From: Candidatus Electryonea clarkiae
GTDB taxonomy: Bacteria > Electryoneota > Electryoneia > Electryoneales > Electryoneaceae
Reading direction: 5' to 3'
DNA length: 64,000 nucleotides
NCBI GenBank assembly: GCA_030765455.1
Contig: JAVCCM010000101.1
Coordinates: forward strand, 28,794 to 92,793
In this document: positions 36,635 through 60,171 of the stretch, piece by piece
Layout of the letters: each line of letters starts with the position of its first letter
How positions within the stretch are numbered: the first letter of the stretch is position 1
Program-made: the position numbers and the translations under genes
Notes under the pieces: generated by a model
The model's input: the letters and a program-made list of their open reading frames with translations, nothing else
The model's database searches: none
What the model was told of the DNA's origin: nothing

Positions 36635-36690
36635 GTTACCCTCGAAAACCATGACCAATTTGAAAGTCGGGGGGTGAATAAACGGAAATA

Positions 36691-36709
36691 CCCGCCGGGG
36701 AGAGCGGGC
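36691..36709 (-). terminator. Putative expression-platform terminator hairpin of the TPP riboswitch (GCCCGCUCUCCCCGGCGGG followed by a U-rich tract)
   Basis: Hairpin plus UAUUUCCGUUUAUU on the minus strand, between the aptamer and the start codon. Confidence 0.35.
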
Positions 36710-36742
36710 AGAAAGGAGATAATCATGCAAAAGGAATAAATC

Positions 36743-36830
36743 GCCCTGTTTCCTACGCCAGCATTAACCGGATCAGGTTCCACGGGTGTATTCTCAGACT
36801 CGTCGTCGAGACGAACCACCCCGAAGCAGC
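36743..36830 (-). promoter_or_regulatory. TPP (THI-box) riboswitch aptamer
   Basis: Minus-strand RNA reads CUUCGGGGUGG...CUGAGAAUACACCCGUGGAACCUGAUCCGGUUAAUGCUGGCGUAGGAAACAGG. This matches the THI-box consensus (GGGGUG, CUGAGA, ACCC, GAACCUGAUC-GG-UAAUGCC/UGGCGUAGGGAA). Confidence 0.8.
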
Positions 36831-37072
36831 AATTTCAAGATAGATAAATTATACAAGAGGGTCAAGCAGGCGCAGAAATAATTGAGATGCATGATTATTT
36901 TGCATTAATGACAAGTAGGTAGATTGGTTAACGTTGTTCAAAAGTTACCTGGGATTGAATTTATGATGGCAAAAAATCTCTCAAGGATTGACATTATGTT
37001 GTTTAAAAGCTCCAGCGGAGCGAAATCATGTAGCACGGTGCGTAAGCGCCGGGAGGTGAAGTAATAATTATT

Positions 37073-37134: not shown

Positions 37135-37179
37135 TTGGGATATATTGGATCAATTCACTCCCCCGGCTTACGCCGAGGG

Positions 37180-37440
37180 CTACATGCTTTCAACCCTTTG
37201 GGTTTACATGTTTTCGACCCTTCTGGGCTACCATACATTCGAACCTTTGGGATTACATGTTTTCGACCCTTCTGGGCTACCATACATTCGAACCTTTGGG
37301 TTTACATGTTTTCGATCCTTCTGGACTATCATACATTCGAACCATTGGGTCTACATGTTTTCAACCTTTATGGCTACTATACATTCGACCCTTTGGATTT
37401 ACATGCTTTTGATCCTTTGGGTCTATTATATGACTCAAAC
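37180..37440. repeat. Tandem repeat, about 5 copies of a 49 bp unit (TACATGTTTTCGACCCTTCTGGGCTACCATACATTCGAACCTTTGGGTT) with an internal 24-25 bp sub-periodicity
   Basis: Copies at 37206, 37255, 37304 and 37353 plus flanking partial units. Three overlapping spurious ORFs in all three + frames are a by-product. Confidence 0.8.
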
Positions 37441-39718: not shown

Positions 39719-42700
39719 ATGACGATTATGATTGAAAAAATGGCAGTTATCATGAGAAAGTTTAATATAGTTATTCCGGTTTTCCTGTTTTGCATTCCAG
39801 CAATGCTGTTTGCAACGACAGGACTCCGTGTAATTGAAGATACTCAGTCCGGTCTGGTGGTGAGAGTAACCCCTGATGACTGGCATCGATTCGAATTAGA
39901 AGATGGATTTATCCCTATTCCAGCTGGAGCAGGTGTTGATAACAGAGAAAATAGTCTGGCGGTTCCGTACTACCGCACTTTAATCGGATTGCCCTCTAAT
40001 AAATTACCGGCAATTCAGGTTGAGAAGATTCAATGGGGTGAGTGGGCTGCTGCTAATATTAAGGAAGGCAAAGAACAACCAAGAAATCAGCGTATTCCAG
40101 TACTGGATAACGGACAGCCTGTTATAGTCGGCAAGCCTTTTCTCTGGCGCGGCAAATGGGTTACGGATTTATATGTAATTCCTGTCCGGATAGATGGAAA
40201 AGGCGTTAGAAAGCTAAAAGATTTACAGGTGCGTGTAACATATAAAGGAAACAACCAGGGTGGATTATCGCAACCCGACAGGCTGTCAGACAAGATTCTC
40301 CTGAATCATGAAGCGTCAAGATTATGGTCTGCCGCTGAGTCAAAACCGTTATTTCGCCGTTCGCAATCCTGGGTTGAATATGATGAATTAATACGCATTG
40401 AAATTGAGGTTGAAGGTATTTATGAAATAAACCGTGAAACTTTGCTTCGTTCGGGTATAGATCTGGGCGGTTATGATCCGCGGAGTTTCAGGATTTATGG
40501 AAATGGCGGGTTTGTTCTTAACGAAAATATTGGCTCTTCCCGCGACAGCACATTGATTGAGAACGCAATTGTTGTTACCGGAGAGGACGACGGCTCCTGG
40601 GATGAAGGAGATAAAATACTCTTTTATGGACGCAGCGTGAACAGTTGGGATGCACATCAGCCGCCGGGAGAATACAGGCATTCAAATAATCCGTTTACGA
40701 TGCGAAATGTTTATTGGCTGGTAGTACCTCCATTAGGAAGTGCAGACGGGAAAAGGATGGAAACTATCGGTACAACCCGTCCGATCACATACGAGGCTAC
40801 GGTAGCACGTTCGAGAGTATTTTCCGAGAATGATAATTTTATTCATCATAGTATCGACAATCCGGAATCTGGAAAAAACTGGTATGCTGCTGACTTATAT
40901 GGCGGCGATAGATATACGACTAATTTTCAACTCGATCAACCTCACCCAGAACAAGAGGCGGTCTTGTTGCTTGGACAGAGAAGGATTCAACGTGATGGGA
41001 ATGCACTTATCAGGGTGCTGATAAATGGAATAGAAATAGAATCATATTCCTTGACAACAAGTGTGCATTCTATAGATATACCGGCGGGAGTGCTGAATTC
41101 AGGTTCCAATACGTTTTCTTACCAGGTTGAACGTGTAGATGCTGATAAACCCGGGCATAGCCTGTTCGACTGGTTTGAGATTAACTACCTGAGATCTTTT
41201 GAAACATCCCTGAGTTCAATTGCCTTTGATCAGCTTCCTGATGACGGTGTTGCAAGTATCAAGCTGCATGGCTTGGATGCACCCTGGGTATTCGATATAG
41301 AGGATTTTGAAGAAGTCCAACATATTCGGTCCGACAGTTTTGCAGTTGAAGCTCAAGTGACTCGGCCTCGAAGATACCTGGCAGTTTCAGATGGTGAATT
41401 TCTTACACCATCATATATATCAAGGGACGACATCGGGTATGGCGAATATCCTGACGGTCTTCGCGACCAATCATTAAATGCAGATTATTTAATGATTGTC
41501 CATCGCGATTTCTGGGAAACTGCCGCAGCGCTTGAAAGCTATATCGAGGAACGTGATAATATTGAAGTAATGAGAGTTCTTGTATCTGATATTTATGATG
41601 AATTTTCATGGGGGTTATTGGATCCCACAGCGATCAGGGATTTTCTGAAATATGCCCTATATGATTGGACGGACTCTGACCCGGTTACCTGTCTTTTCAT
41701 TGGTGATGGAGATTATGACTATCGTAATCTTATCCCCGGTGATGACAAGAACTTGATACCACCTTATGAAAACAACCAGGAATCGCGAGATGACTGGTTT
41801 GCAGAGTTCGACCCCTCCGGCGGCGAACCGGAATACATTATGGGGCGGCTTCCGTTTCAATCTAACCAGGAACTGGATAACTATGTCAATAAATTGATGT
41901 CCTATGAAAGCGATACGGAACGGGGAGCATGGCGGAACAGGGTTATTGTCGTAGCCGATGACGAATACGGTGAAGGTGGCCCAAATTCTTATGACAAAAC
42001 CCATTTGCAATATTCAGAAGCATTATCCCGTGATCACATTCCGAATTATGTAGAACTCGAGAAAATATATATTGGTACTTATCCGACTGAATTTGATCCG
42101 TCAACCGGTGAACGGCGTAAACCTCTTGCTACTCAAGAGTTGATCGAATCATTAAACCGGGGAGCATTGGTTGTAAATTACATGGGGCATGGGAATGCCC
42201 ATGTCTGGGCGCACGAATCTCTCCTTTTAGATACTCGCGACAACATTCTTATTAACAGCGGATTAAGAGAGCCGATATACGTCGCAGCCACTTGCTCCTG
42301 GGGACATTTTGACAGACCAAACAATGAAGCTTTTTTCGAAATGCTTTTAGGACGGAAGGGTGGAGCGATTGGCGCCGTTGCCGCCACAAGGAACACAAGT
42401 GGCTCTGGAAATTTAGTGTACGTCCAGGAATTTTATGCGCAGTTTTTTGACCGGATCAACAGGCGAACACTTGGTGAAAGTGTATTGCTTGCCAAGATAA
42501 ACGTTGAAGGGCCTACAAACCGTTATTATCATTGTTTCTCTGAACCAAACATGATTCCCGCTGTTCCCGGTCTTGACATGATAGTAACTGATATAAACCC
42601 GGACAGCCTTGTTGCGCTTCAAATCGGGAAAGTTCTTGGCGAGGTTCGTGAGATTAATGATGACAATCCGGTCACAGATTATAATGGCGAAGCAGTAGTA

Positions 42701-43618
42701 ACTGTTTTTGACAGTTATGATTCTTTAACCTACACATTCTTTGACGGCTCTACTATGAGTTACAGGATGCCGGGCGGGATCCTCTTCAGAGGTCGCTCGA
42801 CAGTCGGAAGCGGCGACTTTCTTTCAACCTTCATGGTTCCTCGAGATGTTAGTTATGGTTCTTCTGACAGTTGGATCCAGATGTTCGCATCTGACGGCAA
42901 TAAGGATGCTGTAGGCTCAAAACAGGGTGTAGAGATCGCTGCGATCTATGCGGATGAATTTGGCGACAATACTCCACCCGAGATCAATATTTATTTTGAT
43001 CACCGTGGTTGGCAGGATGGTGACATGACTACTCCACAACCAACACTGATAATTGATCTGGTCGATACAAGCGGTATTAATTTGACCAGTGAAATCGGGC
43101 ATGATATCAAAACGGTGGTGGATCCGGGAAAAGCGAATGAGATAACCTATAATCTCACCGAAGATTTTATTTATGAACGTGATAGTTATACTCGTGGAAC
43201 GGCTGAGCATATCATCACTGGATTGGGAGACGGCAGACACGAGCTTGAGGTCTGGGCATGGGACAATGCTAACAATATGGCTCGCAAGGAAATTCTGTTT
43301 ATTACGATAGGATCTGGCGAGGATGTCAGGCTTGAGAATGTAGTTAATGTTCCGAATCCTTTCGAAGAGAGGACTCATTTTACATTCGAAGCTATTGGTG
43401 CGGATGAAGCAGTGATAAAAATTTACACAGCGAGCGGTCGCCATATAAAAACCATAGGTCCACAAACAATTTACAATGGTTTCAATTATATAGAATGGGA
43501 TGGGTTTGACCATTATAATGATCAAATCGCAAACGGCGTTTATCTTTATAAAGTAAAAGTAACAGATTCCTCCGGTCATGAAGACGAATCTATTGGGAAA
43601 CTGCTTCGTATCCGTTAA
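39719..43618 (+). CDS. porU: Type IX secretion system C-terminal signal peptidase PorU (peptidase C25 family) with its own T9SS C-terminal domain
   Basis: C25 motifs YLMIVHRDF...VTCLFIGDGDYD, catalytic His in YMGHGNAHVW and Cys in ATCSWGHFD. C-terminal CTD (VPNPFEERTHFTFEA...NGVYLYKVKV). 1299 aa. The signal peptide probably starts at the internal ATG 39752. Confidence 0.85.
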   Translation: MTIMIEKMAVIMRKFNIVIPVFLFCIPAMLFATTGLRVIEDTQSGLVVRVTPDDWHRFELEDGFIPIPAGAGVDNRENSLAVPYYRTLIGLPSNKLPAIQVEKIQWGEWAAANIKEGKEQPRNQRIPVLDNGQPVIVGKPFLWRGKWVTDLYVIPVRIDGKGVRKLKDLQVRVTYKGNNQGGLSQPDRLSDKILLNHEASRLWSAAESKPLFRRSQSWVEYDELIRIEIEVEGIYEINRETLLRSGIDLGGYDPRSFRIYGNGGFVLNENIGSSRDSTLIENAIVVTGEDDGSWDEGDKILFYGRSVNSWDAHQPPGEYRHSNNPFTMRNVYWLVVPPLGSADGKRMETIGTTRPITYEATVARSRVFSENDNFIHHSIDNPESGKNWYAADLYGGDRYTTNFQLDQPHPEQEAVLLLGQRRIQRDGNALIRVLINGIEIESYSLTTSVHSIDIPAGVLNSGSNTFSYQVERVDADKPGHSLFDWFEINYLRSFETSLSSIAFDQLPDDGVASIKLHGLDAPWVFDIEDFEEVQHIRSDSFAVEAQVTRPRRYLAVSDGEFLTPSYISRDDIGYGEYPDGLRDQSLNADYLMIVHRDFWETAAALESYIEERDNIEVMRVLVSDIYDEFSWGLLDPTAIRDFLKYALYDWTDSDPVTCLFIGDGDYDYRNLIPGDDKNLIPPYENNQESRDDWFAEFDPSGGEPEYIMGRLPFQSNQELDNYVNKLMSYESDTERGAWRNRVIVVADDEYGEGGPNSYDKTHLQYSEALSRDHIPNYVELEKIYIGTYPTEFDPSTGERRKPLATQELIESLNRGALVVNYMGHGNAHVWAHESLLLDTRDNILINSGLREPIYVAATCSWGHFDRPNNEAFFEMLLGRKGGAIGAVAATRNTSGSGNLVYVQEFYAQFFDRINRRTLGESVLLAKINVEGPTNRYYHCFSEPNMIPAVPGLDMIVTDINPDSLVALQIGKVLGEVREINDDNPVTDYNGEAVVTVFDSYDSLTYTFFDGSTMSYRMPGGILFRGRSTVGSGDFLSTFMVPRDVSYGSSDSWIQMFASDGNKDAVGSKQGVEIAAIYADEFGDNTPPEINIYFDHRGWQDGDMTTPQPTLIIDLVDTSGINLTSEIGHDIKTVVDPGKANEITYNLTEDFIYERDSYTRGTAEHIITGLGDGRHELEVWAWDNANNMARKEILFITIGSGEDVRLENVVNVPNPFEERTHFTFEAIGADEAVIKIYTASGRHIKTIGPQTIYNGFNYIEWDGFDHYNDQIANGVYLYKVKVTDSSGHEDESIGKLLRIR

Positions 43619-43915
43619 CTTACGAAGTTAGGCACAAGTACGGTAGAAAAGAATTTTCAGTATTTGCTGTTTTAAATTGAACTTGTATTATGATAGATAT
43701 TCTTGCGGTAGTCTGTGTAATTGGCTTGTATAAGTAAAATATAAACAGGTCTGTAATTTGCTGTAACTATTGATTAAGGTATTCAGCAAATTCATTTCTG
43801 AGACTGGATTTGGATTTTCTTTGGAAATACTCTGGATATAAGGTTCAGGGGATTGGTAATATTATAGATAGGTCATTTAGTGAACATTTATTCTCAAAGA
43901 TACATGGGGCGAAAT

Positions 43916-45013
43916 ATGGGTAGGAAAGCTGTTCTTCGTGAACGCGCTCATGTGATTGTTATAGCGCTTGTAGTATTGCTGTGTACGTTTACCGCGGTAA
44001 AAGATGCCGCCGCTGTTTCTGTTTCACAGGCAGGTGTTCTATTCCTTAAAATCAGTCCGGGCGCTCGTCCCGGTGGAATGGGCGAAGCATTTGTAGCAGT
44101 TGCCGATGACGCAACAGCTACCTGGTGGAATCCAGCCGGATTGGCATATCAGGATCATAATGAGTTGACACTGATGCATGTTAATTGGCTGCCGCAATTC
44201 AAGCTCGAAGATCTTTACTACGATTTCATCAGTTATGTGCACTTAGTTCCCGAGTGGGGGACTTTTGGCGGCAATCTCGTTTTTCTGAATCTGGGCGAAA
44301 CAGAACGGCGAGGCGAGAACAATGAATATCTTGGCACATTTTCCTCTTATGAATATGCCGTAACAGGCAGCTATGGTTCATTGATGACGGAAAAGCTGGC
44401 TCTTGGTGTTAATATGCGATTCATTTATAGTCATCTTTCCGACAGAGGTGCCGGTGCGGAACAGGGTTCTGGAGTCGCAACGTCCATAGGGGTTGATATT
44501 GGTATGATTGCAAAAGGTCCGTTTGGATCCTGGTATGATCCTCTTGAACGTCTTGACTTAGGTGCAAATTTATCCAATATGGGACCAAAGGTCGCATATA
44601 TAGATCGTGCCCAGGCTGATCCACTTCCCACAAACCTTAAGTTCGGATTCGCCTATCATGTGGTTGACAGTCCTTATAATAAATTGTCTCTCATCGGCGA
44701 TGTTAATAAAGAACTTGTTCGCCGGGATGACAAGGGTGACTCTGATCCGTTTTATCTTGCACTGGTTTCCGCATGGGGTGATGGGCCATTCTTTCCAACG
44801 ATGATTTATAATGCCGGGATAGAGTACTGGTACAGTGATCTTATAGCATTGCGAGGTGGGTACTGGAATGATGATCTCGGCAAGATCTGGCCAATAACAT
44901 TCGGCGCCAGTCTGCAATATTCTCTTTACAGATTCGATTTCTCATACATTCATGCCGGTGAAGGTCATCCCCTGCAGGATACAATGCGATTCAGCCTTTC
45001 AATAGGGTTCTGA
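43916..45013 (+). CDS. porV: T9SS outer-membrane shuttle protein PorV/LptO family
   Basis: Signal peptide. PorV signature GARPGGMGEAFVAVADDATATWWNPAGLA. About 365 aa FadL-like barrel. Immediately after porU. Start at one of the ATGs 43880, 43904 or 43916. Confidence 0.85.
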   Translation: MGRKAVLRERAHVIVIALVVLLCTFTAVKDAAAVSVSQAGVLFLKISPGARPGGMGEAFVAVADDATATWWNPAGLAYQDHNELTLMHVNWLPQFKLEDLYYDFISYVHLVPEWGTFGGNLVFLNLGETERRGENNEYLGTFSSYEYAVTGSYGSLMTEKLALGVNMRFIYSHLSDRGAGAEQGSGVATSIGVDIGMIAKGPFGSWYDPLERLDLGANLSNMGPKVAYIDRAQADPLPTNLKFGFAYHVVDSPYNKLSLIGDVNKELVRRDDKGDSDPFYLALVSAWGDGPFFPTMIYNAGIEYWYSDLIALRGGYWNDDLGKIWPITFGASLQYSLYRFDFSYIHAGEGHPLQDTMRFSLSIGF

Positions 45014-45170
45014 TAAATTTTGTGTTGAGTTTTTGAGAAGATATCAAAAGGTAGAAAATTGAAACGACCCTGTTCTTTGGAAATCCTGGGGGGGTAGTTG
45101 TACCGGGGCTTCCAAACGATTCGGGGCAGAACAAGAGCAGCTTGACAACCTTAGGATTTATCACCCCGAT

Positions 45171-48100
45171 ATGAAATTTCTGTTCCAAAAAAATCTCGCT
45201 GGTATTATTTTCTTGTGTGTGTTTTTCACTACATCGCATTTATTGTATGGAAAAAACATTGATGATAAACTAAACCTCAATCTGTTCCAAACGCTTGGTT
45301 CCCAGGAGCAAAGTTTTAATTTCAATTCAGTTAATGACATTAGACGAGATTATCTGGCAGAGACCCTGACAATAATCGCAATTCGTGTGGATTTTTTGCC
45401 GGACACCCTTGCCACGACTACCGGGACCGGTTCATTCTTTTATGAGCTTCCGGATTCTATCGAACCGGAAGAATGGCAGATTGATCCACCTCCTCACGAC
45501 AAACAATATTTCAAAGATCAAATTCTTGCGCTGCATAATTATTTCAAACGGTTCAGTCGCGGAAAACTTAATATTGTTGGGAAAATATATCCTGAAGAAG
45601 ACCAGGACGCTTACACACTTGACTATCCAATCTGGCATATTAATTATGGCGATGATGACAATGACCGTCTTAATCGTACCCTTACTGAGTTGTTTGTTGA
45701 TTCATGGGAAGCAGCCCGTGAAGATCTTGAAGCTGATGGTGTTACTGTAAACGATTCGACTCTCTTCGTCATTTTTCACGCCGGAGCAGGGAACGAATTT
45801 GATACCGGTTTTGATACCACTCCACATGATATCCCTTCTGTTTACATTGGTCCGGAGGATCTGGAAACTTTTGCTGATCTCCCTGATGCCGGAATTCCCC
45901 TGGGAAATGACCTGATTACACGTGGAGTAATTTTGCCCGAAACACAACGTCAGGGTGATGTTGAAGTTGGAATGATCGGGACAATATGCACACAGGTCGG
46001 TTTTTTAATGGGTATGCGACATCTTTATCAACCTGATACCGGCGATCCGGGAATAGGGTTGTTAGGATTAATGGATCGTGGATTCGGTGGTTTTTTCGGA
46101 TTCGGTCCTATTCCACCAAGTGTCTGGGCAAGAGCTTACATGGGGTGGGACAGCGTAAAGGTTGTAGAGGAAGGACCAATCGAACTTATCGCCCAGCAAT
46201 GGCTTGATACACTTTTTACTGAACCGGATACTAATTATCATCTGGTAAAAGTACCAATCAATAATGATGAATATTATCTGCTTGAAGCCAGGCTTCGTGA
46301 TCCTGAAGAAGACAGTGTGACTGTTGCTTACGACCGTGATGGTCGCCGATTGACCATGAATTACGATTATTCCTTTGAAACCGGTGATGGTTTTCGTGTA
46401 CCGGTATGGGTAGAAGATCATGATTTCGACTTTCCATCAAGCGGCATTCTTATCTGGCATATTGACGAGAGTGTGATCAGGGAAAAAATCGATGAAGACC
46501 GTATACAGGAAGATCGTAATCGCAGGGGCGTCTCCCTTGAGGAAGCTGATGGAAGTGAAGATATCGGCGAGGATTATCCATTCCTAACACCAGGTGATGG
46601 TGCCGAATACGGAGTGCGCGAAGACGCCTGGTACGCGGGGAACAAAGTATGGCAGCTTGCAAACAATAATGCTCGCGATGTGGTTTTCGGACCCTATACC
46701 AATCCTTCAACAGCAGCAAATTCAGGTGGAGCAAGCCATATAATATTCGAAAATTTCACTGTTCTCGGCGATACTATGTCCTGTGAAGTAAGCAATGCAT
46801 GGAAGCAGGGCAATTTTCCACAGAATTTAGACTGGAATCCCGGAAGCCAGGTATCGTCCACATTCGCCGACTTGACAGGTGATGGGATTGATGAATTGGT
46901 TCTGTATGATTCAAAAGGGAAGATCCGGTTTTTCTATGGCGACGGTTCGATGCCTTTTAACATTGATCAGACCTATGATCTACCTATAAACAAGATATCT
47001 CATCTTATTGCTGCTGACCTGGATAATGATGGATCGGATGAATTGATCATCGCTGGAGATGCAACGCTTCTGATTCAAAAATATTCTGACGCCGGCGTTT
47101 TGGTAAATGAGGGTGATCCATTTCAATTTGGTCAGCAGGAAATGATATCGTTGACGATTTCAGGACCAGAGGTAGAGCCGGTTATAAATGTAGCATTGAA
47201 AAATCAAAATGAGGATATATGCCGGATTTATTCCATTTATCGTGATCCTGCCGGATATAATCATAGATATATCCAGATTCCTGCAACAGCCCATCTCAGA
47301 TTCGCATTGCTCGGTAGTGAATGGACTGATACGCTTGCAGTGGTTGACAACAAGGGAAATTTGTCGATATACAGAGTCGAAAGTTTCCAGGAGCCATCTG
47401 AATTATTCAGGACTCCAAATACCGAACCATTTGAAACAATCAATTATCTCATATCTGGTGATTTCGATGGCGATAACATGTGGGATATAATGGCATCTGC
47501 ATCCAACGGTAATTTGATTTTCTGGTGGGGAACGGAGGATTGGAGCGAGCCTCATGTTCATCAACTCGAAAAACAGTTATGGAAATACACTGCTTTTGAT
47601 ATTGATGACGACGGTGTAGTAGAACCGGTAGGTATTAGCGGAGATTTTCCGGTAGAAGTGGTTGGAATTGAACCCGGTGGAATTTTCTCCGAGGATACAC
47701 CGATAAGGCTCCCGGAAGGAACACATGCTTCAGGTGCATCTCCCTTAATAATAAATCAGGGTAACCGTCAAAATAAGCTAATGATTTGCGCTGCTCAACT
47801 TGACGATACACTTGGACATGGTGTTGTCGCTACAAATCTTCATTTGAAACGACCTCTTTCCGGCTTCCCGCTTGATTATGGGAGTAATCAGACTAATCTA
47901 AAAATTACAATCGGTCAGATTGATGATGACAGCGATATTGAATTAGTTATGACTTCAATCGCTTCCGGAGGTTTGAAAGTAATCAACATTCCATCCGACC
48001 CAGGAACGTCACATGAAATTCTATGGGGCATGGAAGGCGGCAATCCCCGGCATACATATCATATTTTTTCTTCACCTTCTTCAGTTTCAGGTCTGTCTTC

Positions 48101-48368
48101 AACGGATCTTGAAAATTCATACTGTTGGCCCAATCCGGTGATAGAAGATGTGGCGCATTTTCGGTTCCAGTCAAATTCATCTGGAAATGCGGAAATAAAA
48201 GTCTTCGATCTTGTCGGACGAGAAGTACTCGTGAAGAAGCAGGCAGCAAGGCTTGGAAACGATCAGGAGATTGCCCTCGATGTCAGCAACCTCCCGAGTG
48301 GTGTATATTTAGCCAGGCTTGAGGTAGGTAGCAATTCTACTTTAATACGGTTTGCGGTGGTGCAATAG
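45171..48368 (+). CDS. T9SS-secreted 1065 aa protein: signal peptide + inactive M6 (InhA)-like pseudopeptidase domain + FG-GAP/VCBS beta-propeller repeats + T9SS C-terminal domain
   Basis: VIFHAGAGNEFDTG and GTICTQVGFLMGMRHLYQPD sit where M6 enzymes have the HEFGHDLGLPDLYD motif, so the HExxH is lost. FG-GAP motifs ADLTGDGIDELVL, AADLDNDGSDELII, SGDFDGDNMWDI, AFDIDDDGVVEP and IGQIDDDSDIELV. CTD CWPNPVIEDVAHFRF...SGVYLARLEV. Confidence 0.8.
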   Translation: MKFLFQKNLAGIIFLCVFFTTSHLLYGKNIDDKLNLNLFQTLGSQEQSFNFNSVNDIRRDYLAETLTIIAIRVDFLPDTLATTTGTGSFFYELPDSIEPEEWQIDPPPHDKQYFKDQILALHNYFKRFSRGKLNIVGKIYPEEDQDAYTLDYPIWHINYGDDDNDRLNRTLTELFVDSWEAAREDLEADGVTVNDSTLFVIFHAGAGNEFDTGFDTTPHDIPSVYIGPEDLETFADLPDAGIPLGNDLITRGVILPETQRQGDVEVGMIGTICTQVGFLMGMRHLYQPDTGDPGIGLLGLMDRGFGGFFGFGPIPPSVWARAYMGWDSVKVVEEGPIELIAQQWLDTLFTEPDTNYHLVKVPINNDEYYLLEARLRDPEEDSVTVAYDRDGRRLTMNYDYSFETGDGFRVPVWVEDHDFDFPSSGILIWHIDESVIREKIDEDRIQEDRNRRGVSLEEADGSEDIGEDYPFLTPGDGAEYGVREDAWYAGNKVWQLANNNARDVVFGPYTNPSTAANSGGASHIIFENFTVLGDTMSCEVSNAWKQGNFPQNLDWNPGSQVSSTFADLTGDGIDELVLYDSKGKIRFFYGDGSMPFNIDQTYDLPINKISHLIAADLDNDGSDELIIAGDATLLIQKYSDAGVLVNEGDPFQFGQQEMISLTISGPEVEPVINVALKNQNEDICRIYSIYRDPAGYNHRYIQIPATAHLRFALLGSEWTDTLAVVDNKGNLSIYRVESFQEPSELFRTPNTEPFETINYLISGDFDGDNMWDIMASASNGNLIFWWGTEDWSEPHVHQLEKQLWKYTAFDIDDDGVVEPVGISGDFPVEVVGIEPGGIFSEDTPIRLPEGTHASGASPLIINQGNRQNKLMICAAQLDDTLGHGVVATNLHLKRPLSGFPLDYGSNQTNLKITIGQIDDDSDIELVMTSIASGGLKVINIPSDPGTSHEILWGMEGGNPRHTYHIFSSPSSVSGLSSTDLENSYCWPNPVIEDVAHFRFQSNSSGNAEIKVFDLVGREVLVKKQAARLGNDQEIALDVSNLPSGVYLARLEVGSNSTLIRFAVVQ

Positions 48369-48470
48369 ATTATGAAAACGATTATAGAAAAAGAGTTTTA
48401 TGCAATAAACATAATATCGCATCTAATTCATGTCATCATTAGTACTGCGATTCATCTGATTCAGTGCGTT

Positions 48471-48554
48471 GTCATTCCTGCGAAGGCGGGAATCCAGAGA
48501 GCGAGCATTATTGTGAAATTGAACTTTCTGGATTCCCGCCTTCGCGGGAATGAC
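48471..48554. repeat. REP/MITE-like palindromic element: 27 bp arms GTCATTCCTGCGAAGGCGGGAATCCAG / CTGGATTCCCGCCTTCGCGGGAATGAC, 29 bp spacer
   Basis: Perfect inverted repeat. A second full copy at 53963..54039 and partial arms at 52983 and 53913. Translates to the artefactual peptides PAKAGIQ and SRLRGND. Confidence 0.75.
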
Positions 48555-48593
48555 ATCTCGATTGAGCGGAATTGGTGTACTATCACTGTTTCA

Positions 48594-51500
48594 ATGATTT
48601 TTGGATTTGTTCTTGCCATATCAAACGTTTCCGCTCAACCTCTCGATGCGAACCATCCGGAGCTTCTCTGGAATACTTTTGAGACAGACCATTTTGTGGT
48701 TCATTATCATGATGGCGCGGAACGAACTGCCAATGTTATTGCAAAAATCGCAGAGGAAATTCATCCGAAAATCACCGGATTGTACGGATATGAACCGGAC
48801 ACGAAGTTCCATTTTATCGTAAAGGATACAGACGACTACGCCAACGGAGCAGCATATTATTACAACAATAAAATGCTTATATGGTGTACCGCACTGGATT
48901 ATGACCTGAGGGGCACGACTAACTGGCTGCGAAATGTTATTACACATGAATACACCCACATCATCCAGCTGGGTGCCGCCAGGAAAGCGCCTCGACCGAT
49001 GCCTGCTTTTTATTTCCAGTGGATCGATTATGAATTTGAGAAGCGGCCTGATGTTTTGTATGGATACCCCAACATTCTCGCCAGTTATCCCATAGCAATG
49101 ACTACAATTCCGATGTGGTTCGCAGAAGGAACAGCACAGGCGAATGTACCGGAGCTTGAATATGATTATTGGGACAGCCACCGGGATATGCAGCTTCGAA
49201 TGCGGGCTTTGAATGATTCCCTGCTCCCTCTGAATGATATGGAAGTTTTCGGTAAAACCAGCCTTGGAAATGAAGGAGTGTATAATCACGGTTTCAGTCT
49301 GGTGCTATATATCACACAGAAATATGGGGCAGATGCCCTGAGTGATATGACACAAGAAATGAAAAAGTTGCATCGCGTTGATTTTAACAAAGCTATTGAA
49401 GCAGCGATTGGAATTGACGGATGGCAGCTTCATGAAGAGTGGGCTTCTTATCTAAAAGACAACTATCTGCAAAAGTCTGAAATAATCAGTGCGAATGAAG
49501 TAACCGGGCGTGATTTCGAATCTGAAGGTTATGCAAACCTTTATCCGAAATGGAGTTCGGATAATGAATACATTTACTACTCCTCTAACAGGGGCAAAGA
49601 CTATTTAACCAGCAGAAGCATCTGGCGAAAATCTTTAGAAACAGGGAAAGCAGAAAAGATTGCCCCGGAAGTAAACAGCCCTTTTGACATTACCGCTGAT
49701 GGCAAATGGATGGTTTATAGCCAGATAGTACGACAAAAGAATGAGAGCTATTACGCAGATATCTACCTCCGTGACCTGGAGAAAGAGAAGCAGATTCGTC
49801 TCACACGGTCTGCCCGTGCGATGGAGCCATCTTTTTCGCCGGACGAAAAAAGTCTTGTGTTTGTGCTGAATAAGGATGGAACAAAAAATATCGCTGCTTT
49901 GGAATTACCTGATAGGGAGGAATGGCGCAAAATTAAACCGGTGACCTCTGACAGCATAACTCATATTACAGATTACCGGGACGGCACTCAATGCTGGAGA
50001 CCGCGTTTCAGCCCGAACGGTGAACAAATAGTGTACTCTATGGGACGTGACATAGGACGCGAAATTGTGCTGATAAATCCTGACGGCAAGAATCGACAGA
50101 TAATTATTGACGGTCCCGGCGACCAGAGAGATCCTGCCTGGTCGTCCGATGGTAATGAAATATATTATGTTTCAGATGAAACAGGTATTTATAATCTATA
50201 TAAATATTCTCTGAATGATGAATCCACCATCGCGCTGTCCAATGTCGTCGGTAGTGCATTTATGCCAAACGTAAGAGAAGATGGCGATATCGTTTATACT
50301 GAATTTACCGGGCGAGGATTCGAGCTTCGTATTCTTGATCCAACAGGGCCGGTCGATAGGTTCAAGATGATTTACGATCAGGATTTTATCGAGAATATTC
50401 CAGAGATTACTTTTGATGACACTGACATTGACACTGCTGAGACGGTAGGATACGAGAATCCATTTGAAAATATCTTTGTAGTACCTCGCCTGGCAATGGA
50501 TTATAACACATTCAAGCCAGGAGTTTATCTCTTTAGCAGCGATGTGCTTGAAAGATTGTTCATGCTTGCAGGATTTTCGATTAACCAAAAAACAGAATTT
50601 GACGCATTTGCATTATTTGATTTCAAAGCTCTGCGCCCAACCATTTTCCTTGAAGGATATTATATCAAACGTACTGACGACGCTCGTTTTGAAGACCCGT
50701 ACGTCATTGTAGATGAAAAGCCGGGACCAGAACCCGTTTTTGATACTTATGGTGTTGATTATTCTTTTCATTTAATAGAGGTTGATGGTGGAGCCCGGTG
50801 GAGGCTTTTCACCCCTGTGAGCCTCGAGGCGCGTGGGGTATGGAGTCGTTACCAGGCATACCTGAATTTTGAGGATCTTAGCTCGATTCATTATACTTAT
50901 TTCATAGGAAGATATTTACAAGCCAGGCTGGACGCTGATTTAACGGTGCCAATGGTAAAAGGAAATGTTCATCCCAGGAAAGGTTGGGCTGGCCAGCTAA
51001 CAGCGGCATATGAGAATAACAAGTTCTTTGACGGTTTCGAAGTGAACCTTGACAAGTTTACCTTGCAGGAAAAGTATATTCCTTATAAATACTGGCGATT
51101 GGAAACCGATGTTACCGGTTGGTGGAATCCGGTTGGAAAATTAGTGTTTCAGCCCCGTTTCAGGGGTGGTTACCTTGATAAACAGGTTGATCCATTTATG
51201 CATCTTTATTCCGGCGGCTTGCATGGAATGCGGGGATACAGTTACTATAGCCTTGGCGGAACAAGAAAAATAATTGGTTCATTGGCATTACGACATCCAA
51301 TATACACTCCCAAGCGTCCAAGGTTTGGCTGGGTTCATTTTGACGGATTATACCTTGGTATTTTTGGTGATGCTGGCGACACATGGCGTGAGAGGGATTT
51401 TGATTTTGATAATGTGATAAGTGATGCGGGTGTGGAACTAAGGGCAAAATTGTTCTCATGGTATGGCTTCCCGACTGCTGTAACTTTTTCGGCAGCAAAA

Positions 51501-51650
51501 GGATTTGATCAATTAACTGTTACAGAAAATAATAATACAACTGTTTATGATCCGGACTGGAGATATTATTTTACCTTACTATTTGATTTTGAAACAATAT
51601 TTCCCTCGAATGATCAAAAAGGTAGAATGACGAACGGGTTTGGAAGATAG
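48594..51650 (+). CDS. Omp85-superfamily outer membrane protein with an unusual periplasmic region: Peptidase_MA-like zinc-binding domain (HExxH...EG) + PD40/TolB-like beta-propeller repeats + C-terminal surface-antigen beta-barrel
   Basis: Signal peptide MIFGFVLAISNVSAQP. NVITHEYTHIIQ...WFAEGTAQ. PD40-like repeats (WSSDNEYIYYSS, FSPDEKSLVF, FSPNGEQIVYS, WSSDGNEIYYVS). C-terminal Bac_surface_Ag-like LYSGGLHGMRGYSYYSLGG...SLALRHP...HFDGLYLGIFGDAGDTW...ISDAGVELR. The listed start 48372 reads through the REP element and is rejected. Confidence 0.7.
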   Translation: MIFGFVLAISNVSAQPLDANHPELLWNTFETDHFVVHYHDGAERTANVIAKIAEEIHPKITGLYGYEPDTKFHFIVKDTDDYANGAAYYYNNKMLIWCTALDYDLRGTTNWLRNVITHEYTHIIQLGAARKAPRPMPAFYFQWIDYEFEKRPDVLYGYPNILASYPIAMTTIPMWFAEGTAQANVPELEYDYWDSHRDMQLRMRALNDSLLPLNDMEVFGKTSLGNEGVYNHGFSLVLYITQKYGADALSDMTQEMKKLHRVDFNKAIEAAIGIDGWQLHEEWASYLKDNYLQKSEIISANEVTGRDFESEGYANLYPKWSSDNEYIYYSSNRGKDYLTSRSIWRKSLETGKAEKIAPEVNSPFDITADGKWMVYSQIVRQKNESYYADIYLRDLEKEKQIRLTRSARAMEPSFSPDEKSLVFVLNKDGTKNIAALELPDREEWRKIKPVTSDSITHITDYRDGTQCWRPRFSPNGEQIVYSMGRDIGREIVLINPDGKNRQIIIDGPGDQRDPAWSSDGNEIYYVSDETGIYNLYKYSLNDESTIALSNVVGSAFMPNVREDGDIVYTEFTGRGFELRILDPTGPVDRFKMIYDQDFIENIPEITFDDTDIDTAETVGYENPFENIFVVPRLAMDYNTFKPGVYLFSSDVLERLFMLAGFSINQKTEFDAFALFDFKALRPTIFLEGYYIKRTDDARFEDPYVIVDEKPGPEPVFDTYGVDYSFHLIEVDGGARWRLFTPVSLEARGVWSRYQAYLNFEDLSSIHYTYFIGRYLQARLDADLTVPMVKGNVHPRKGWAGQLTAAYENNKFFDGFEVNLDKFTLQEKYIPYKYWRLETDVTGWWNPVGKLVFQPRFRGGYLDKQVDPFMHLYSGGLHGMRGYSYYSLGGTRKIIGSLALRHPIYTPKRPRFGWVHFDGLYLGIFGDAGDTWRERDFDFDNVISDAGVELRAKLFSWYGFPTAVTFSAAKGFDQLTVTENNNTTVYDPDWRYYFTLLFDFETIFPSNDQKGRMTNGFGR

Positions 51651-51747
51651 TAGCCCGGACAGCTTGTGTCCGGGAAAGAAAGGTCTTGGATTCTTGATCC
51701 AGAATAATACTTAAAAGAATAATCCCGGACACAAGCTGTCCGGGCTA
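51651..51747. terminator. Compound palindrome directly after the stop codon: TAGCCCGGACAGCTTGTGTCCGGG ... CCCGGACACAAGCTGTCCGGGCTA. Each arm is itself a hairpin CCCGGACA-loop-TGTCCGGG
   Basis: Read directly from the sequence. Belongs to the same CCGGGACA hairpin family as 53814 and 61220. Confidence 0.5.
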
Positions 51748-51809
51748 CAAAAAGATATTTTATAAGCTTCAATTTTTAGTTTGATTTCCGGTTTTACCTG
51801 GAGGTAGAG

Positions 51810-52886
51810 ATGAAAAAGTCGATTTTATTATTAGTGGCGTTCGCCGTTCTGTTCTCATTTGGGACAATTGTTGCAGGGACGGATACTGCAGCGTCTCGAG
51901 AAACGGAAAATACCGGTAATGGTTCTGATGAAAGTTCAATCGTATTTCTGAACAAGGAAACGACTCAGGAAAATATTGCGAATACTGATGCGGGCTATGA
52001 AGAGGAAGCGCATATTAAGTCACCTCTTTTCCCTTCAAAGAAATCCTTCGATCTGCGACAGAAGATGTCTTTTTATTCGCAAACGGATGAAGGATCAGGC
52101 GCTGTGGCTTCAGTTTCGACCGGTGAGAAACGTCTCAATCCGGGTAGAGCTGTGATGATGTCAGCTATAATTCCCGGCGCGGGTGAATTTTTTCTGGGCT
52201 ATAATAAAGAAAAGCCGATGTTATCATATCTGAAATCAGGATTATTCTTCTCAGCCGAAGTCGGTTTCTGGTATGGCGCTATTTCCTATGCCATGCGTGG
52301 GGAAGCAGTAGAGGACGATTACGAAATATACGCTGATGATAAATGGAATGAAGATGTTTACAGGGGATTTGAATATTGGTTGGCGAAAAATTATCCAACA
52401 CCCGACAATATTTATCCTGATGATAAAGCTAAATGGCGCTTGGAAAGATGGGAAGATAAACTGAATTATTTGCCGACCTGGTTCACCCATGAATTACCGG
52501 AAGAAGAAGACCAGCAATACTACGAGATGATAGGTAAATATCTGCAGCAGTTCGGCATTGCATGGGATGGGGCGCATGATAATTGGATTGAATCCGGTGC
52601 CAATGATCCATTTTATCGAGCCTATCTTGTTGATGAAAGACATGTAGATTATGCTAATGCCAAGGCGTTTCATTATGGCGATATGCGATATGAATCCAAT
52701 CAATTGCTGGATGCTTCCGCCGCATTTTTTATGGCTATCATGGTCAACCACGTCATGTCAGCCCTTGACGCCGGTTTTTCTGTGCGTATCCACAATCGTG
52801 AACTGGCGCGAGCAGAAATGGGATTTGATATAAAGCGCCTTAATGGCGAGGAAATAGCCCTCGGAGGTTTGAGAGTTAGATTTTAA
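51810..52886 (+). CDS. Secreted or outer-membrane protein with a DUF5683-like PGxGQ/E motif (358 aa)
   Basis: Signal peptide. AVMMSAIIPGAGEFFLGYNKEK motif. C-terminal ...GGLRVRF ending in Phe, an OMP-like terminus. Confidence 0.6.
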   Translation: MKKSILLLVAFAVLFSFGTIVAGTDTAASRETENTGNGSDESSIVFLNKETTQENIANTDAGYEEEAHIKSPLFPSKKSFDLRQKMSFYSQTDEGSGAVASVSTGEKRLNPGRAVMMSAIIPGAGEFFLGYNKEKPMLSYLKSGLFFSAEVGFWYGAISYAMRGEAVEDDYEIYADDKWNEDVYRGFEYWLAKNYPTPDNIYPDDKAKWRLERWEDKLNYLPTWFTHELPEEEDQQYYEMIGKYLQQFGIAWDGAHDNWIESGANDPFYRAYLVDERHVDYANAKAFHYGDMRYESNQLLDASAAFFMAIMVNHVMSALDAGFSVRIHNRELARAEMGFDIKRLNGEEIALGGLRVRF

Positions 52887-52995
52887 ACAAACTCTTGCTT
52901 TCAATAAATAAATGCCAATGCCTGTTAAACATTTGAATATATACTTGAACAGTACACACACTCAGAGCAATCGAAGTGTCATTCCCGCGAATCCG

Positions 52996-53700
52996 ATGAA
53001 TCATAAAATTAGATTAGCAAATATAGCAGGAAAAATATTCTCTTTCCTGCTGATCTTGATCTTTTTCGTATCGAAGGGCTACAGCCAATCCCTCGATCTG
53101 AATGCTACTTTCTCTTCGAGTGCTGTATCTCATACCGACACTTACCTTGCCAAACGTCCTCAACAGGCTTTCGTCCGCAGTTTAGTTCTACCGGGCTGGG
53201 GTCAGCGTTGGGGTGAAAGACCTTCACGAGGGACATTTTATACCGGGGTTGAAGCAGCATTATGGACAGGATTGTTCTACTCCTTTGAATCTTACAACTC
53301 TCGCACCAACCATTATGAAGCATTCGCCAGGGAACATGCCAGTGTTACAGGGGATCACCCGCATCAGTTCTTCGTAGATATGGGTAATTATGAAAATGTT
53401 GACGTATTTAATGCCAGACGTCGGCAGGTTCGTGATTATATTTCACAATATTCAGGCGATGATGACTGGTGGGAGTGGGATGACATGAGCAATCGTCAAA
53501 AGTTCAAAGATTTACGTATAAGCGCAGACTTGAATAAGAACCGGATGTATTATATCATCGGGGGAATGGCGTTGAACAGGATTGTCTCGGCTATTGATGC
53601 AGCAAGAGGATTGACGAAGGAACAGAAAGAGATGAAGAAAAAAATGGGACTTTCGCTGGGATTTGCTCCGAATTCAATAGGTATATCTTTTAACTGGTAG
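52996..53700 (+). CDS. Paralogous secreted or outer-membrane protein with a PGWGQ motif (234 aa from ATG 52996)
   Basis: Signal peptide MNHKIRLANIAGKIFSFLLILIFFVSKGYSQ. SLVLPGWGQRWGERPSRGTFYTGVEAALW. C-terminal SIGISFNW. The start is abutted by a partial REP arm. Confidence 0.6.
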   Translation: MNHKIRLANIAGKIFSFLLILIFFVSKGYSQSLDLNATFSSSAVSHTDTYLAKRPQQAFVRSLVLPGWGQRWGERPSRGTFYTGVEAALWTGLFYSFESYNSRTNHYEAFAREHASVTGDHPHQFFVDMGNYENVDVFNARRRQVRDYISQYSGDDDWWEWDDMSNRQKFKDLRISADLNKNRMYYIIGGMALNRIVSAIDAARGLTKEQKEMKKKMGLSLGFAPNSIGISFNW

Positions 53701-53739
53701 AGAAATAGACCGGGGAACCATATGCCTGACCTGAAAAAG

Positions 53740-53886
53740 CCAGAACCAATAACTAACTATAGTGATTCTCGAAAATATTGTCCCATATATTTAATTTTGA
53801 TTTCGTTGATAAACCAGGACATCGAGCTGTCCTGGGCACACACAATGAGACATTCTTTTCAAGAGACCAGAACCAATAACTAACTA
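53740..53886. repeat. Perfect 20 bp direct repeats CCAGAACCAATAACTAACTA (53740-53759 and 53867-53886) bracketing a 107 bp segment that contains the hairpin CCAGGACATCGAGCTGTCCTGG (53814-53835)
   Basis: Read directly from the sequence. Confidence 0.5.
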
Positions 53887-53962
53887 ATACACCAATTCAG
53901 ATCAATCGAGTTGTCATTCCCGGGAAGTAGGCTGTCCGAGAATGCAATAATCAGCCAAGAAT

Positions 53963-54039
53963 GTCATTCCTGCGAAGGCAGGAATCCAAGTTTAACAACA
54001 GGTTGCAATCTTGTGGATTCCCGCCTTCGCGGGAATGAC
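53963..54039. repeat. Second full copy of the GTCATTCCTGCGAAGGC(G/A)GGAATCC palindromic element, with an additional partial arm at 53913-53927
   Basis: Arms at 53963-53987 and 54014-54039. The spurious ORF 53911..54132 carries the SRLRGND translation. Confidence 0.75.
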
Positions 54040-54182
54040 AGCCCCCTGAATCAGATGAATCGTAGTACAAGGATGTACAGGATAAACAGAATTATTTCTT
54101 TGCGGCTTTGCGCGAGAAAAATATCTCCTTAACTGTCTCGGTAGATCAATCTGCTATGTCAATCCTGGTTTTCAGTCAGGGA

Positions 54183-54908
54183 TTATTTTATATAAACCGC
54201 TTTCCTCATTTCCACCTGCCCTGCCGTCTCAACTTTTACCAGGTACAATCCACTTGAAAGGTCAGGAGTCATCTTTATACTGAAGTCATGACTGCCGGCG
54301 GAAAAAATACTATTTGCAAAGGATTTTACAGTTCTTCCGTCAGGAGTAATCATCGAAATCATTACATTTCCAGTTGATGGAATGGTAAAATTAATTCTTG
54401 CAGAAGAGTTAAATGGATTTGGATATACATTCGATAATCTGAATTCAGCAGGTGCTGTTGCCTCTGCAGGAACAACATTTTCGCCTTCAGCATTCACAGT
54501 AAACATCAAACTATCAATAACTTCAGGGTCATTTAAGCTTTGAACTACCAACCACAGGATACCAGTCCCGGCAGATCGTATATGATAATCTATCTGCACG
54601 GTATCAGATTCATCAACCGTAAGCGAATCAGGGTACTCACGAACAAAACTGCCGAAACAATAACCATCAGCACACATGGATGTTTCCCATCCTTCAGGCA
54701 CATCTTCATAGCGGAGCATAAGCATAAAAATATCATCGGATGCACCGGTATTTAATAGAAAATTATTGAATCTGCTTGTTGTTTCGTCTTCATAGTCAAA
54801 TGTATTTACAAGATCATCGAGCGGCTCCAGCTCAAAACCTGCCTGGGCAAAAGTTAATGCAGGCAGCAGCAAAACAGCGGACAGTAAATAAAGAAAAAAG
54901 TGCTTCAT
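54183..54908 (-). CDS. Small T9SS cargo protein (signal peptide + about 150 aa domain + T9SS C-terminal sorting domain)
   Basis: C-terminal NVYPNPFNSSARINFTIP...SGLYLVKVETAGQVEMRKAVYIK matches the T9SS type A CTD. Confidence 0.8.
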   Translation of the reverse strand: MKHFFLYLLSAVLLLPALTFAQAGFELEPLDDLVNTFDYEDETTSRFNNFLLNTGASDDIFMLMLRYEDVPEGWETSMCADGYCFGSFVREYPDSLTVDESDTVQIDYHIRSAGTGILWLVVQSLNDPEVIDSLMFTVNAEGENVVPAEATAPAEFRLSNVYPNPFNSSARINFTIPSTGNVMISMITPDGRTVKSFANSIFSAGSHDFSIKMTPDLSSGLYLVKVETAGQVEMRKAVYIK

Positions 54909-58371: not shown

Positions 58372-58396
58372 TCTAAGAGGAACTGGAGTTATTTAA

Positions 58397-59023
58397 ATGC
58401 CACAATACGGAATGGTTATCGACCTCAAAAGGTGTTACGGTTGTTACGCCTGTGTCATGGCTTGCAAGGTGAAAAACCACACACCACCCAGCGTTTTCTG
58501 GGCACGCCTTCTGAAAGGCGAACGGGGCAAGTTCCCCAACACAATGCGGCAGGCTCTTCCTGTCTTGTGCATGCACTGTGACGAACCCTCCTGTCTGGAG
58601 GTATGTCCCACGGGTGCAACACAGCAGTTGGACAATGGCATCGTGATCGTGGATAAGGACAAATGCATGGGATGTAAAGCCTGTATTATGGCTTGTCCCT
58701 ATGGCGCCAGGTATTCAGTGGAAAAATGGGAGAGCTATTTTCCTGATGGACTTCCACTCTCTGAATATGAGGAGTTTGCGAAGAAACACTGGGATGATAA
58801 TTCCGGCTGTGGCGTTGCTACAAAGTGCGATTTTTGTCTCGACCTGCTCAATGAAGGCAAACTACCGGCATGCGTGGAAGCCTGCGCTGCCAATGCCCGG
58901 ACATTTGGCGACCTCGATGACCCGGACAGCGAGATATCCGTGTTGATCAGGAAATACAGGGGAGAGGTGCTGAATCCTGAATTAGGTAATAAACCAAAGG
59001 TCTATTACCTCGCCCCGAGGTAA
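58397..59023 (+). CDS. 4Fe-4S ferredoxin-type electron-transfer subunit (PsrB/NrfC/DmsB-like)
   Basis: Four Cys clusters (CYGCYACVMACK, CMHCDEPSCLEVCP, CMGCKACIMACP, CDFCLDLLNEGKLPACVEAC). Confidence 0.9.
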   Translation: MPQYGMVIDLKRCYGCYACVMACKVKNHTPPSVFWARLLKGERGKFPNTMRQALPVLCMHCDEPSCLEVCPTGATQQLDNGIVIVDKDKCMGCKACIMACPYGARYSVEKWESYFPDGLPLSEYEEFAKKHWDDNSGCGVATKCDFCLDLLNEGKLPACVEACAANARTFGDLDDPDSEISVLIRKYRGEVLNPELGNKPKVYYLAPR

Positions 59024-59024
59024 A

Positions 59025-59115: not shown

Positions 59116-59178
59116 GAACAACTAATAAATAGTCTTGAAGAAGTAGTAGATATTTAGCAAGAAAGTGAGAGAGGTATC

Positions 59179-60147: not shown

Positions 60148-60171
60148 AGAGTTTTAAAAACTGAGGATGGA

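Follow-up and report, generated by a model that had tools for sequence, protein, structure and literature searches.

A 64,000-nucleotide stretch of DNA from Candidatus Electryonea clarkiae, referred to here as the window, carries on its plus strand a cluster of six co-directional genes, namely two type IX secretion system (T9SS) genes, porU and porV, followed by four genes designated g3, g4, g5, and g6. The gene order is retained in several phyla, and the best explanation of the arrangement is that porU-porV-g3-g4-g5-g6 constitute one co-transcribed envelope operon. It is probable that this operon is a functional T9SS-linked outer-membrane module; any single mechanistic step of the operon model is much less certain and ranks far below the module claim itself. 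The domain identities of the products, the paralogy of g5 and g6, the modeled fold of g4, the disappearance of the catalytic site from g3 and its persistence in g4, and the structure of the operon across phyla can be regarded as established, and we infer that the products of g3 to g6 cooperate with PorV at the outer membrane.

Candidatus Electryonea clarkiae is placed in Electryoneota (AABM5-125-24), a candidate phylum within the FCB group, and was described from Ace Lake metagenomes in a study that does not mention a T9SS (PMC9324843). The top database match of the g4 protein, at 100% identity, carries the name of this organism. Of the proteins treated here, PorU, PorV, and the family of g3, which is named by NCBIfam, were known beforehand. 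Searches of a full-text literature library on DUF5683, on T9SS in phyla other than Bacteroidota, and on PorV-linked operons returned no description of the operon, of a protease-bearing Omp85 protein lacking POTRA domains, or of a function for DUF5683, for which the single text match is a survey of nematode G-protein-coupled receptors; a paper on the beta-barrel assembly machinery of Flavobacterium johnsoniae mentions neither a protease-bearing Omp85 protein nor DUF5683.

All seven open reading frames (ORFs) described in an earlier note on this DNA are present in the ORF list where that note had placed them. The six genes of the cluster and the cargo gene on the opposite strand are as follows, with CTD denoting the C-terminal domain that marks T9SS cargo.

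39719-43618, plus strand: porU, T9SS C25-type sortase; C25 domain nt 41486-42508, CTD/FlgD_ig nt 43352-43570
43880-45013, plus strand: porV, FadL-like outer-membrane barrel of the PorV family (PF19572, NF033709)
45171-48368, plus strand: g3, T9SS cargo-type protein of 1065 amino acids (aa) (NF052323, FG-GAP, TIGR04183); M6-like domain nt 45315-46802, FG-GAP repeats approximately nt 46848-48050, type A CTD nt 48126-48344
48594-51650, plus strand: g4, POTRA-less Omp85-family protein of 1018 aa (AlphaFold2 model, motifs); putative gluzincin-type peptidase nt 48669-49493 with HEYTH at 48945-48959, TolB-like beta-propeller nt 49494-50348, BamA-like barrel of 16 strands nt 50475-51581 with the loop-6 motif GMRGYSYY
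51810-52886, plus strand: g5, DUF5683-like protein; PGAGE nt 52173-52187, C-terminal beta-hairpin nt 52809-52880 ending in GLRVRF
52996-53700, plus strand: g6, PGWGQ-motif paralogue of g5, likewise DUF5683-like (PF18935, E 3e-4)
54183-54908, minus strand: small type A CTD cargo gene of 241 aa (TIGR04183 35.9 bits, PF18962 E 8e-8)

Conservation of the cluster across phyla

Relatives of g4 were collected by running a g4 profile over GTDB genomes, one for each species, the best 80 of at least 577 relatives were used as loci, and the six window proteins were mapped onto these by tblastn, with a locus counted for a given gene only where its contig reached far enough. PorV lies upstream in 58 of 58 loci, g3 is present in 60 of 61, g5 in 67 of 69, and g6 in 54 of 64, and PorU is found directly upstream of porV in 35 of 52. 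All mapped neighbors are collinear with g4 and on the same strand, the same gene order recurs in independent metagenome contigs, and the genes flanking the cluster are unrelated from locus to locus. Median gaps amount to 27 nt between g3 and g4, 42 nt between g4 and g5, and 6 nt between g5 and g6, and a quarter of the junctions overlap, which fits one transcript with coupled translation. The syntenic g4 subfamily comprises proteins at or above approximately 36% identity, and the taxa carrying the module include relatives within Electryoneota, LCP-89, Calditrichota including Caldithrix, KSB1, Ignavibacteria, and metagenome-assembled genomes of Marinimicrobia type.

Because of these locus counts, the short or overlapping gaps, and the unrelated flanking genes, the conserved core is PorV-g3-g4-g5, with PorU and g6 as frequent additions. 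KSB1-type loci have gatB, efp, accBC, and gcvHP upstream of porV, and PorU is unlinked there. An Ignavibacteria locus (L072) contains a single DUF5683-like gene and no g6, and the other loci giving no g6 match are mostly of Ignavibacteria type too. The proposal in the earlier note that a conserved, undescribed module lies beside porU and porV is thus borne out by synteny in relatives, and its further suggestion that the accessory components are lineage-specific is contradicted by their occurrence in several phyla. As a separate observation, one locus whose g4 is 63% identical to that of the window (L002) has an extra gene of 409 aa having no Pfam match between g3 and g4 (8757-9986).

A chance or recent local juxtaposition of these genes in the Electryonea clarkiae genome, having no functional meaning, would draw its sole support from the mobile-looking palindromic elements that stand between the genes of the window. 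These elements are specific to the Electryonea clarkiae genome, the corresponding junctions of relatives are short or overlapping, and collinearity in dozens of species of several phyla refutes juxtaposition by chance, leaving this explanation with a negligible probability. Promoter and terminator consensus scans gave no enrichment over shuffled sequences, and the boundaries of the operon are not defined by them.

PorU, PorV, and the minus-strand cargo gene

The porU product matches the NF033707 T9SS sortase model over its full length at 693.7 bits (cut-off 420) and Peptidase_C25 (PF01364) at 225 bits (E 2e-66), and its translation contains a His motif (GHG, in YMGHGN) and a Cys motif (CSWG, in ATCSWG). 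At its C-terminus FlgD_ig is matched at 30.1 bits (above 27), and TIGR04183 at 22.7, slightly below the threshold of 23. The model matches, the motifs, and the C-terminal FlgD_ig/CTD domain identify PorU as a C25 sortase, in agreement with the previous description of a C25 peptidase having His and Cys motifs and a CTD.

PorV had likewise been named in the earlier note from its family signature, and passes the thresholds of PF19572 (101 bits, above 27; E 8e-29) and of the PorV/PorQ family model NF033709 (274 bits, above 90), though its score of 203.7 bits on the Bacteroidota-tuned PorV equivalog NF033710 is under the cut-off of 250. This score is far above those for PorQ (85) and PorV2 (57), and PorV orthologues of other phyla score 206 to 243 bits on the same equivalog. 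By homology at the family level, the protein is assigned as the CTD-binding shuttle and anchor barrel.

The small gene on the opposite strand (54183-54908) encodes a protein with a signal peptide, and its CTD, already noted earlier, is of type A and matches both TIGR04183 and PF18962. In related loci its position holds different genes, which places it outside the conserved cluster.

g3, a CTD-bearing pseudo-protease

g3 matches NF052323, the family named 'T9SS-dependent M6-like inactivated metalloprotease', at 432.9 bits, below the cut-off of 600. The alignment covers the N-terminal half and the CTD only, and the rest of the C-terminal half has diverged; the type A CTD is matched by TIGR04183 at 38 bits. 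Since syntenic g3 orthologues in Ignavibacteria-type loci are full-length members of the family (885, 803, and 883 bits in L072, L064, and L047, respectively), g3 of the window is, by position, classified as a divergent orthologue of this NCBI-named family. The view of g3 as a cargo protein composed of FG-GAP repeats and a CTD was correct for both of these parts and overlooked the N-terminal M6-like domain.

The window g3 lacks an HExxH motif, the motif column reading GFLMGMRHLY. In an alignment of 62 g3 orthologues this column is of the type LMFGHQLGLPNLY, in which the first His and the catalytic Glu are replaced; HExxH is absent in 61 of the 62, and the one remaining sequence has an HExxH anywhere along its length. 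The protein is conserved despite this loss, and is accordingly predicted to be a conserved, catalytically dead pseudo-protease.

The suggestion that g3 is an analogue of PorZ finds no direct support. Searched against NCBIfam (E<=0.01), g3 matches only NF052323, M6, and CTD models and no PorZ model, its domain make-up is different, and a sequence search of the PDB with g3 found nothing. Its position and its CTD, though not homology, nevertheless make g3 the obvious candidate for a surface subunit that is non-catalytic and resembles PorZ.

g4, a POTRA-less Omp85-family protein with a predicted zinc protease

A confident AlphaFold2 model of g4 (pLDDT 88, pTM 0.85), for which 50 homologues were used, comprises an alpha/beta peptidase (residues 26-300), a beta-propeller (300-585), and a 16-strand barrel (628-996). 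The previous assignment of an Omp85 barrel combined with MA-like and PD40 domains agrees with this model, in which the propeller is TolB-like. No POTRA match was obtained for g4 in the domain search, and in the model it is the peptidase and propeller that stand ahead of the barrel. Family scores are low, Peptidase_MA_2 being matched at 23.5 bits (gathering score 32.4) and Pfam Omp85 at 16 bits (threshold 24), and a PDB search by sequence gave no solved structure related to g4 outside its TolB-like part.

A loop-6 RGY signature, (V/I)RG(Y/F), is typical of Omp85 proteins. The barrel segment GMRGYSYY of g4, whose glycines and tyrosine are invariant among 50 sequences, matches this signature. In the peptidase domain, residues H118, E119, and H122 of the HExxH motif and the downstream E178 are invariant in 50 of 50 sequences; this invariance indicates a predicted active gluzincin site under selection.

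The start of g4 at 48594, as proposed earlier, is upheld by orthologues that begin at the corresponding signal peptide. A longer ORF from 48372 opens by translating a REP-like (repetitive extragenic palindromic) element (IPAKAGIQ...LDSRLRGND), and g4 as publicly annotated (1045 aa) likewise begins inside the element.

In its wider extent the g4 family is large: 3,425 representative clusters are matched at E<=1e-30. One member, scoring 672 bits, still has an FG-GAP and CTD protein and a DUF5683 gene as neighbors. Since remote relatives occur in loci lacking PorV, the g4 architecture itself is not T9SS-specific, and it is one large subfamily that is locked to PorV and the CTD protein.

g5 and g6, DUF5683-like paralogues

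BLASTP comparison of g5 and g6 is not significant (E 0.13). Family profiles of 55 g5 homologues and 31 g6 orthologues align in hhalign with 99.9% probability (E 8e-33), so that the paralogy of the two DUF5683-like proteins, which this alignment assigns, is visible solely by profile-profile comparison because of the lack of a significant BLASTP match. The window g6 matches PF18935 at 21.2 bits, below the gathering score of 26.7, and the window g5 has no PF18935 match; orthologues reach 27.8 and 28.6 bits (E-values of g6 orthologues 8e-5 to 2e-6), and precomputed annotation assigns PF18935 to many homologues of g5. An S-x-x-x-P-G-x-G-Q/E helix motif is shared by the g5 and g6 orthologues and DUF5683.

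The AlphaFold2 model of g5 (pLDDT 80) consists of a signal peptide, a disordered stretch of approximately 80 residues, a core of helices, two of them connected by the PGAGE motif, an insert, and a C-terminal beta-hairpin. The conserved insert is specific to g5 and approximately 100 residues long. The protein is thus predicted to be mostly helical and not a barrel. No meaningful structural relative of the g5 model was found in the PDB, and searching PDB sequences with profiles of g5 and g6 gave no match. The true start of g6 is probably the Met at 52996; the ORF from 52912 starts within a degenerate REP copy (52951-53015).

C-terminal residues are strikingly constrained: F, W, or Y is the last residue in 62 of 68 g5 orthologues, of which 61 are hydrophobic at positions -2 and -4 as well, and the same holds for the last residue in 39 of 55 orthologues of g6. 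The beta-signal recognized by Omp85 insertases has the form G-x-x-hydrophobic-x-aromatic. g5 endings such as GLRVRF fit this form and can be described as beta-signal-like tails, so that g5 and g6 look like envelope proteins having a barrel-directed tail. An inner-membrane placement was considered, for which the helices are only moderately hydrophobic. The earlier portrayal of g5 and g6 as paralogous outer-membrane proteins with a PGxGQ motif therefore stands with respect to paralogy and in part with respect to location; a beta-barrel is not predicted, g5 being helical.

On a marine contig (L088, 8800-10855) a weak PorV-like barrel gene is directly followed by a DUF5683-like gene, with neither g3 nor g4, and the DUF5683-like protein has the same PGxGQ motif and the terminus QKRF. 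This pair hints at a direct partnership between the PorV family and DUF5683. A further pair on another contig of the same species (L085, 7804-10999), approximately 7 kb from a SprA gene, consists of a 698-aa FG-GAP and CTD protein directly followed by a 332-aa protein. It was rejected as a full paralogous g3-g5 pair, as the 332-aa protein has no more than the g5-specific insert domain in common with g5 (hhalign 99.8%) and the likeness of the larger protein to g3 is limited to the repeats and the CTD.

Weighing of the module reading

Several observations weigh against the cluster as a T9SS module. PorU, its least stably linked member, is unlinked in about one third of the loci. g3 has no sequence similarity to PorZ, and the helices of g5 and g6 reach Kyte-Doolittle values of 1.0-1.5, which is moderate hydrophobicity only. 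A canonical short DUF5683 gene occurs among housekeeping genes. A full-length g4 relative (P0370, 520 bits) lies in an unrelated neighborhood lacking PorV, and on a high-GC contig (L089, 12578-18638) from which PorV is absent a g4 homologue of the same architecture (22% identity) is situated between a HEAT-repeat/cyclophilin protein and a lipoprotein with LptE, a short DUF5683 gene being found 4 kb upstream.

The last of these observations, those on DUF5683 and on the two g4 relatives, together with the size of the g4 family, favor the view that g4, g5, and g6 are a general outer-membrane biogenesis or quality-control unit, in which an Omp85-family protease with small DUF5683 partners would act on envelope proteins of all kinds, lying near porV through the shared regulation of outer-membrane genes and not as a component of the T9SS. 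Within the subfamily at or above approximately 36% identity, however, PorV and the CTD-bearing protein are adjacent with at most one exception among the loci counted, the other neighbors are scrambled across phyla, and gene overlaps are frequent. Such conservation usually reflects physical partnership rather than shared regulation, and the general unit is considered unlikely, though it deserves to be taken seriously.

A second alternative regards g3 and g4 as secreted or surface-displayed nutritional proteases encoded beside the machinery that handles them, g3 being ordinary cargo and g4 a type Vd-like autotransporter whose Omp85 barrel exports the N-terminal protease and propeller. The combination of an N-terminal passenger and an Omp85 barrel recalls the PlpD-type (Vd) autotransporters, but g4 lacks the POTRA domain that Vd passengers keep and has no CTD. 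The zinc site of g4 is intact, which speaks for this alternative, whereas the catalytic site of g3 is dead in nearly all orthologues, indicating that g3 is not a digestive enzyme. Electryonea clarkiae has been described as a protein-degrading organism having many exported peptidases (PMC9324843). Ordinary cargo genes are nevertheless not kept in fixed order beside porV across phyla, and the neighboring small CTD cargo gene, which is not conserved, exemplifies the behavior of ordinary cargo at this locus. This alternative is therefore rated as very improbable.

Proposed mechanism and its significance

If the cluster is a T9SS-linked module, g3 would be exported by the T9SS via its type A CTD and would remain docked on a PorV-type barrel, where it would serve at the surface as a ligand-binding subunit with no catalytic activity and correspond to PorZ in position, not by homology. 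g4 would be anchored in the outer membrane by its BamA-like 16-strand barrel, with the N-terminal protease and the TolB-like propeller most plausibly on the periplasmic side, as the POTRA domains of other Omp85 proteins are; alternatively, these N-terminal domains might reach the cell surface by a type Vd-like route. At its lateral seam g4 might assemble or hold partner proteins, the candidates being g5 and g6 with their beta-signals, and its protease might trim or remove T9SS cargo, fragments of CTDs, or subunits that have stalled, such that functions resembling those of BamA and BepA would be combined in one chain. g5 and g6 would be Sec-exported helical proteins and are most likely clients or stable partners of g4, of PorV barrels, or of both.

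A more far-reaching version, in which the attachment stage outside Bacteroidia is built differently, with g4 capturing the hairpins of g5 and g6, forming a stable complex with PorV and g3 that replaces PorZ and PorQ, and processing or clearing cargo and CTDs, is speculative and on balance improbable. Were it true, g4 would represent a new functional class of Omp85 machine, and DUF5683 would gain its first function.

The late steps of the T9SS, comprising cargo hand-over, CTD removal, and surface attachment, are understood almost solely from Porphyromonas gingivalis, and the operon points to different, widely conserved PorV partners in many environmental FCB phyla. If these partners work together, the attachment stage of the T9SS would be modular across phyla, the Omp85 repertoire would gain a POTRA-less, protease-bearing form, and the DUF5683 domain would gain a testable role. 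The gene order PorV, M6-like inactivated protein, Omp85 protease, DUF5683 also provides a simple genomic marker for T9SS loci of uncultured lineages.

REP-like elements within the cluster

The intergenic spacers of the cluster contain the following palindromic elements, to which no strand is assigned.

48442-48582: REP-like palindrome between g3 and g4 (inverted repeat I4, 32-nt arms, 94% complementary; fold -81 kcal/mol, z -10)
51650-51748: perfect 26-bp inverted repeat between g4 and g5 (I5, 100% complementary; fold -63 kcal/mol, z -11)
53885-54068: REP-like elements after g6, at the convergent gene junction (repeats D4, D8, I1, I3, and I6; fold -51 kcal/mol, z -6)

The window contains 4 copies of a 27-nt core (TGTCATTCCTGCGAAGGCGGGAATCCA) against 0 expected, all inside the region 39719-54908, with matches at 53962 and 54014 among them. 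These counts and the folding energies of the hairpins corroborate the REP-like palindromes reported in the earlier note; the 26-bp hairpin between g4 and g5 is distinct from the REP-like elements. Relatives have no REP spacers, their junctions being short or overlapping, which implies that the REP elements are a species-level overlay on the operon. Because ORFs run through REP-like elements, the start calls of g4 and g6 are over-long: the stretches 48372-48593 and 52912-52995 of the ORF calls add repeat-encoded residues (IPAKAGIQ...RLRGND and SVIPANP, respectively). An Rfam search found no RNA family within the region.

Other features of the window

Beyond the region, no further T9SS gene was found in the rest of the 64-kb window. 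It holds housekeeping genes, a restriction-modification pair, an Omp85 gene with POTRA, and a thiosulfate-reductase-like cluster, of which the following features were recorded.

28146-29903, plus strand: second Omp85-family gene, with a POTRA domain and ShlB/FhaC-type barrel matches, 10 kb upstream of the cluster
31744-33790, plus strand: low-GC island (GC 0.32 versus approximately 0.43)
36732-36833, minus strand: thiamine pyrophosphate (TPP) riboswitch (58.9 bits on Rfam RF00059, exceeding the gathering score)
37177-37422: tandem repeat array (period 49 nt, approximately 5 copies, 84% matches; a period of 24 is also readable)
55678-61083, plus strand: redox cluster (molybdopterin oxidoreductase, 4Fe-4S protein, NrfD-type membrane subunit, FdhD)

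The island encodes an MjaI-type restriction endonuclease together with an N4/N6 DNA methylase that carries a fused staphylococcal-nuclease domain, and is probably a horizontally acquired restriction-modification pair. The riboswitch is directly upstream of a TonB-dependent receptor gene (34157-36730, minus strand), a position that suggests thiamine-regulated uptake by this receptor. Between the receptor with its riboswitch and a DinB-like polymerase gene lies the tandem array, which yields several overlapping spurious ORFs. The redox cluster is probably the thiosulfate reductase (Phs) cluster treated for Electryonea clarkiae in PMC9324843.

Comparison with known systems

With TolB of the Tol-Pal system g4 shares a domain-level resemblance only, as neither the TolB N-terminal domain nor a Tol-Pal gene context is present, and BepA serves as a functional analogy. 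The kinship of g4 with the Omp85 superfamily (BamA, TamA, FhaC, Sam50) is expressed in the 16-strand barrel and the loop-6 motif; unlike these proteins, g4 has no POTRA domains and carries in their place, on the same polypeptide, the predicted gluzincin protease and the TolB-like propeller.

With respect to Pfam DUF5683 (PF18935), g6 and many g5 and g6 orthologues score around the threshold and share the motif. The window proteins differ in falling below the gathering score, in the insert of g5, and in the beta-hairpin with a beta-signal-like terminus on both. g3 shares with NF052323 the N-terminal half, the CTD, and the loss of HExxH, although the window protein scores below the cut-off, and the family name covers the protein only.

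In the attachment complex of P. gingivalis, PorU and PorZ retain their CTDs and are held on the PorV and PorQ barrels (PMC8545088). g4, g5, and g6 have no counterpart in that complex as described, and unlike it the cluster, and with it the whole window, contains one PorV/PorQ-family gene and no second gene of PorQ type. PorZ, which is functionally associated with PorU and PorV and presents A-LPS or a surface glycolipid to PorU, is composed of two seven-bladed propellers and an uncleaved CTD, and PorQ is a second PorV-like barrel that anchors it, whereas g3 combines a dead M6-like protease with FG-GAP repeats and is not homologous to it. The likeness to the PorU-PorV-PorZ-PorQ system lies in the adjacency of porU and porV in the window and in their being encoded together with a second large CTD protein having propeller-type repeats, g3.

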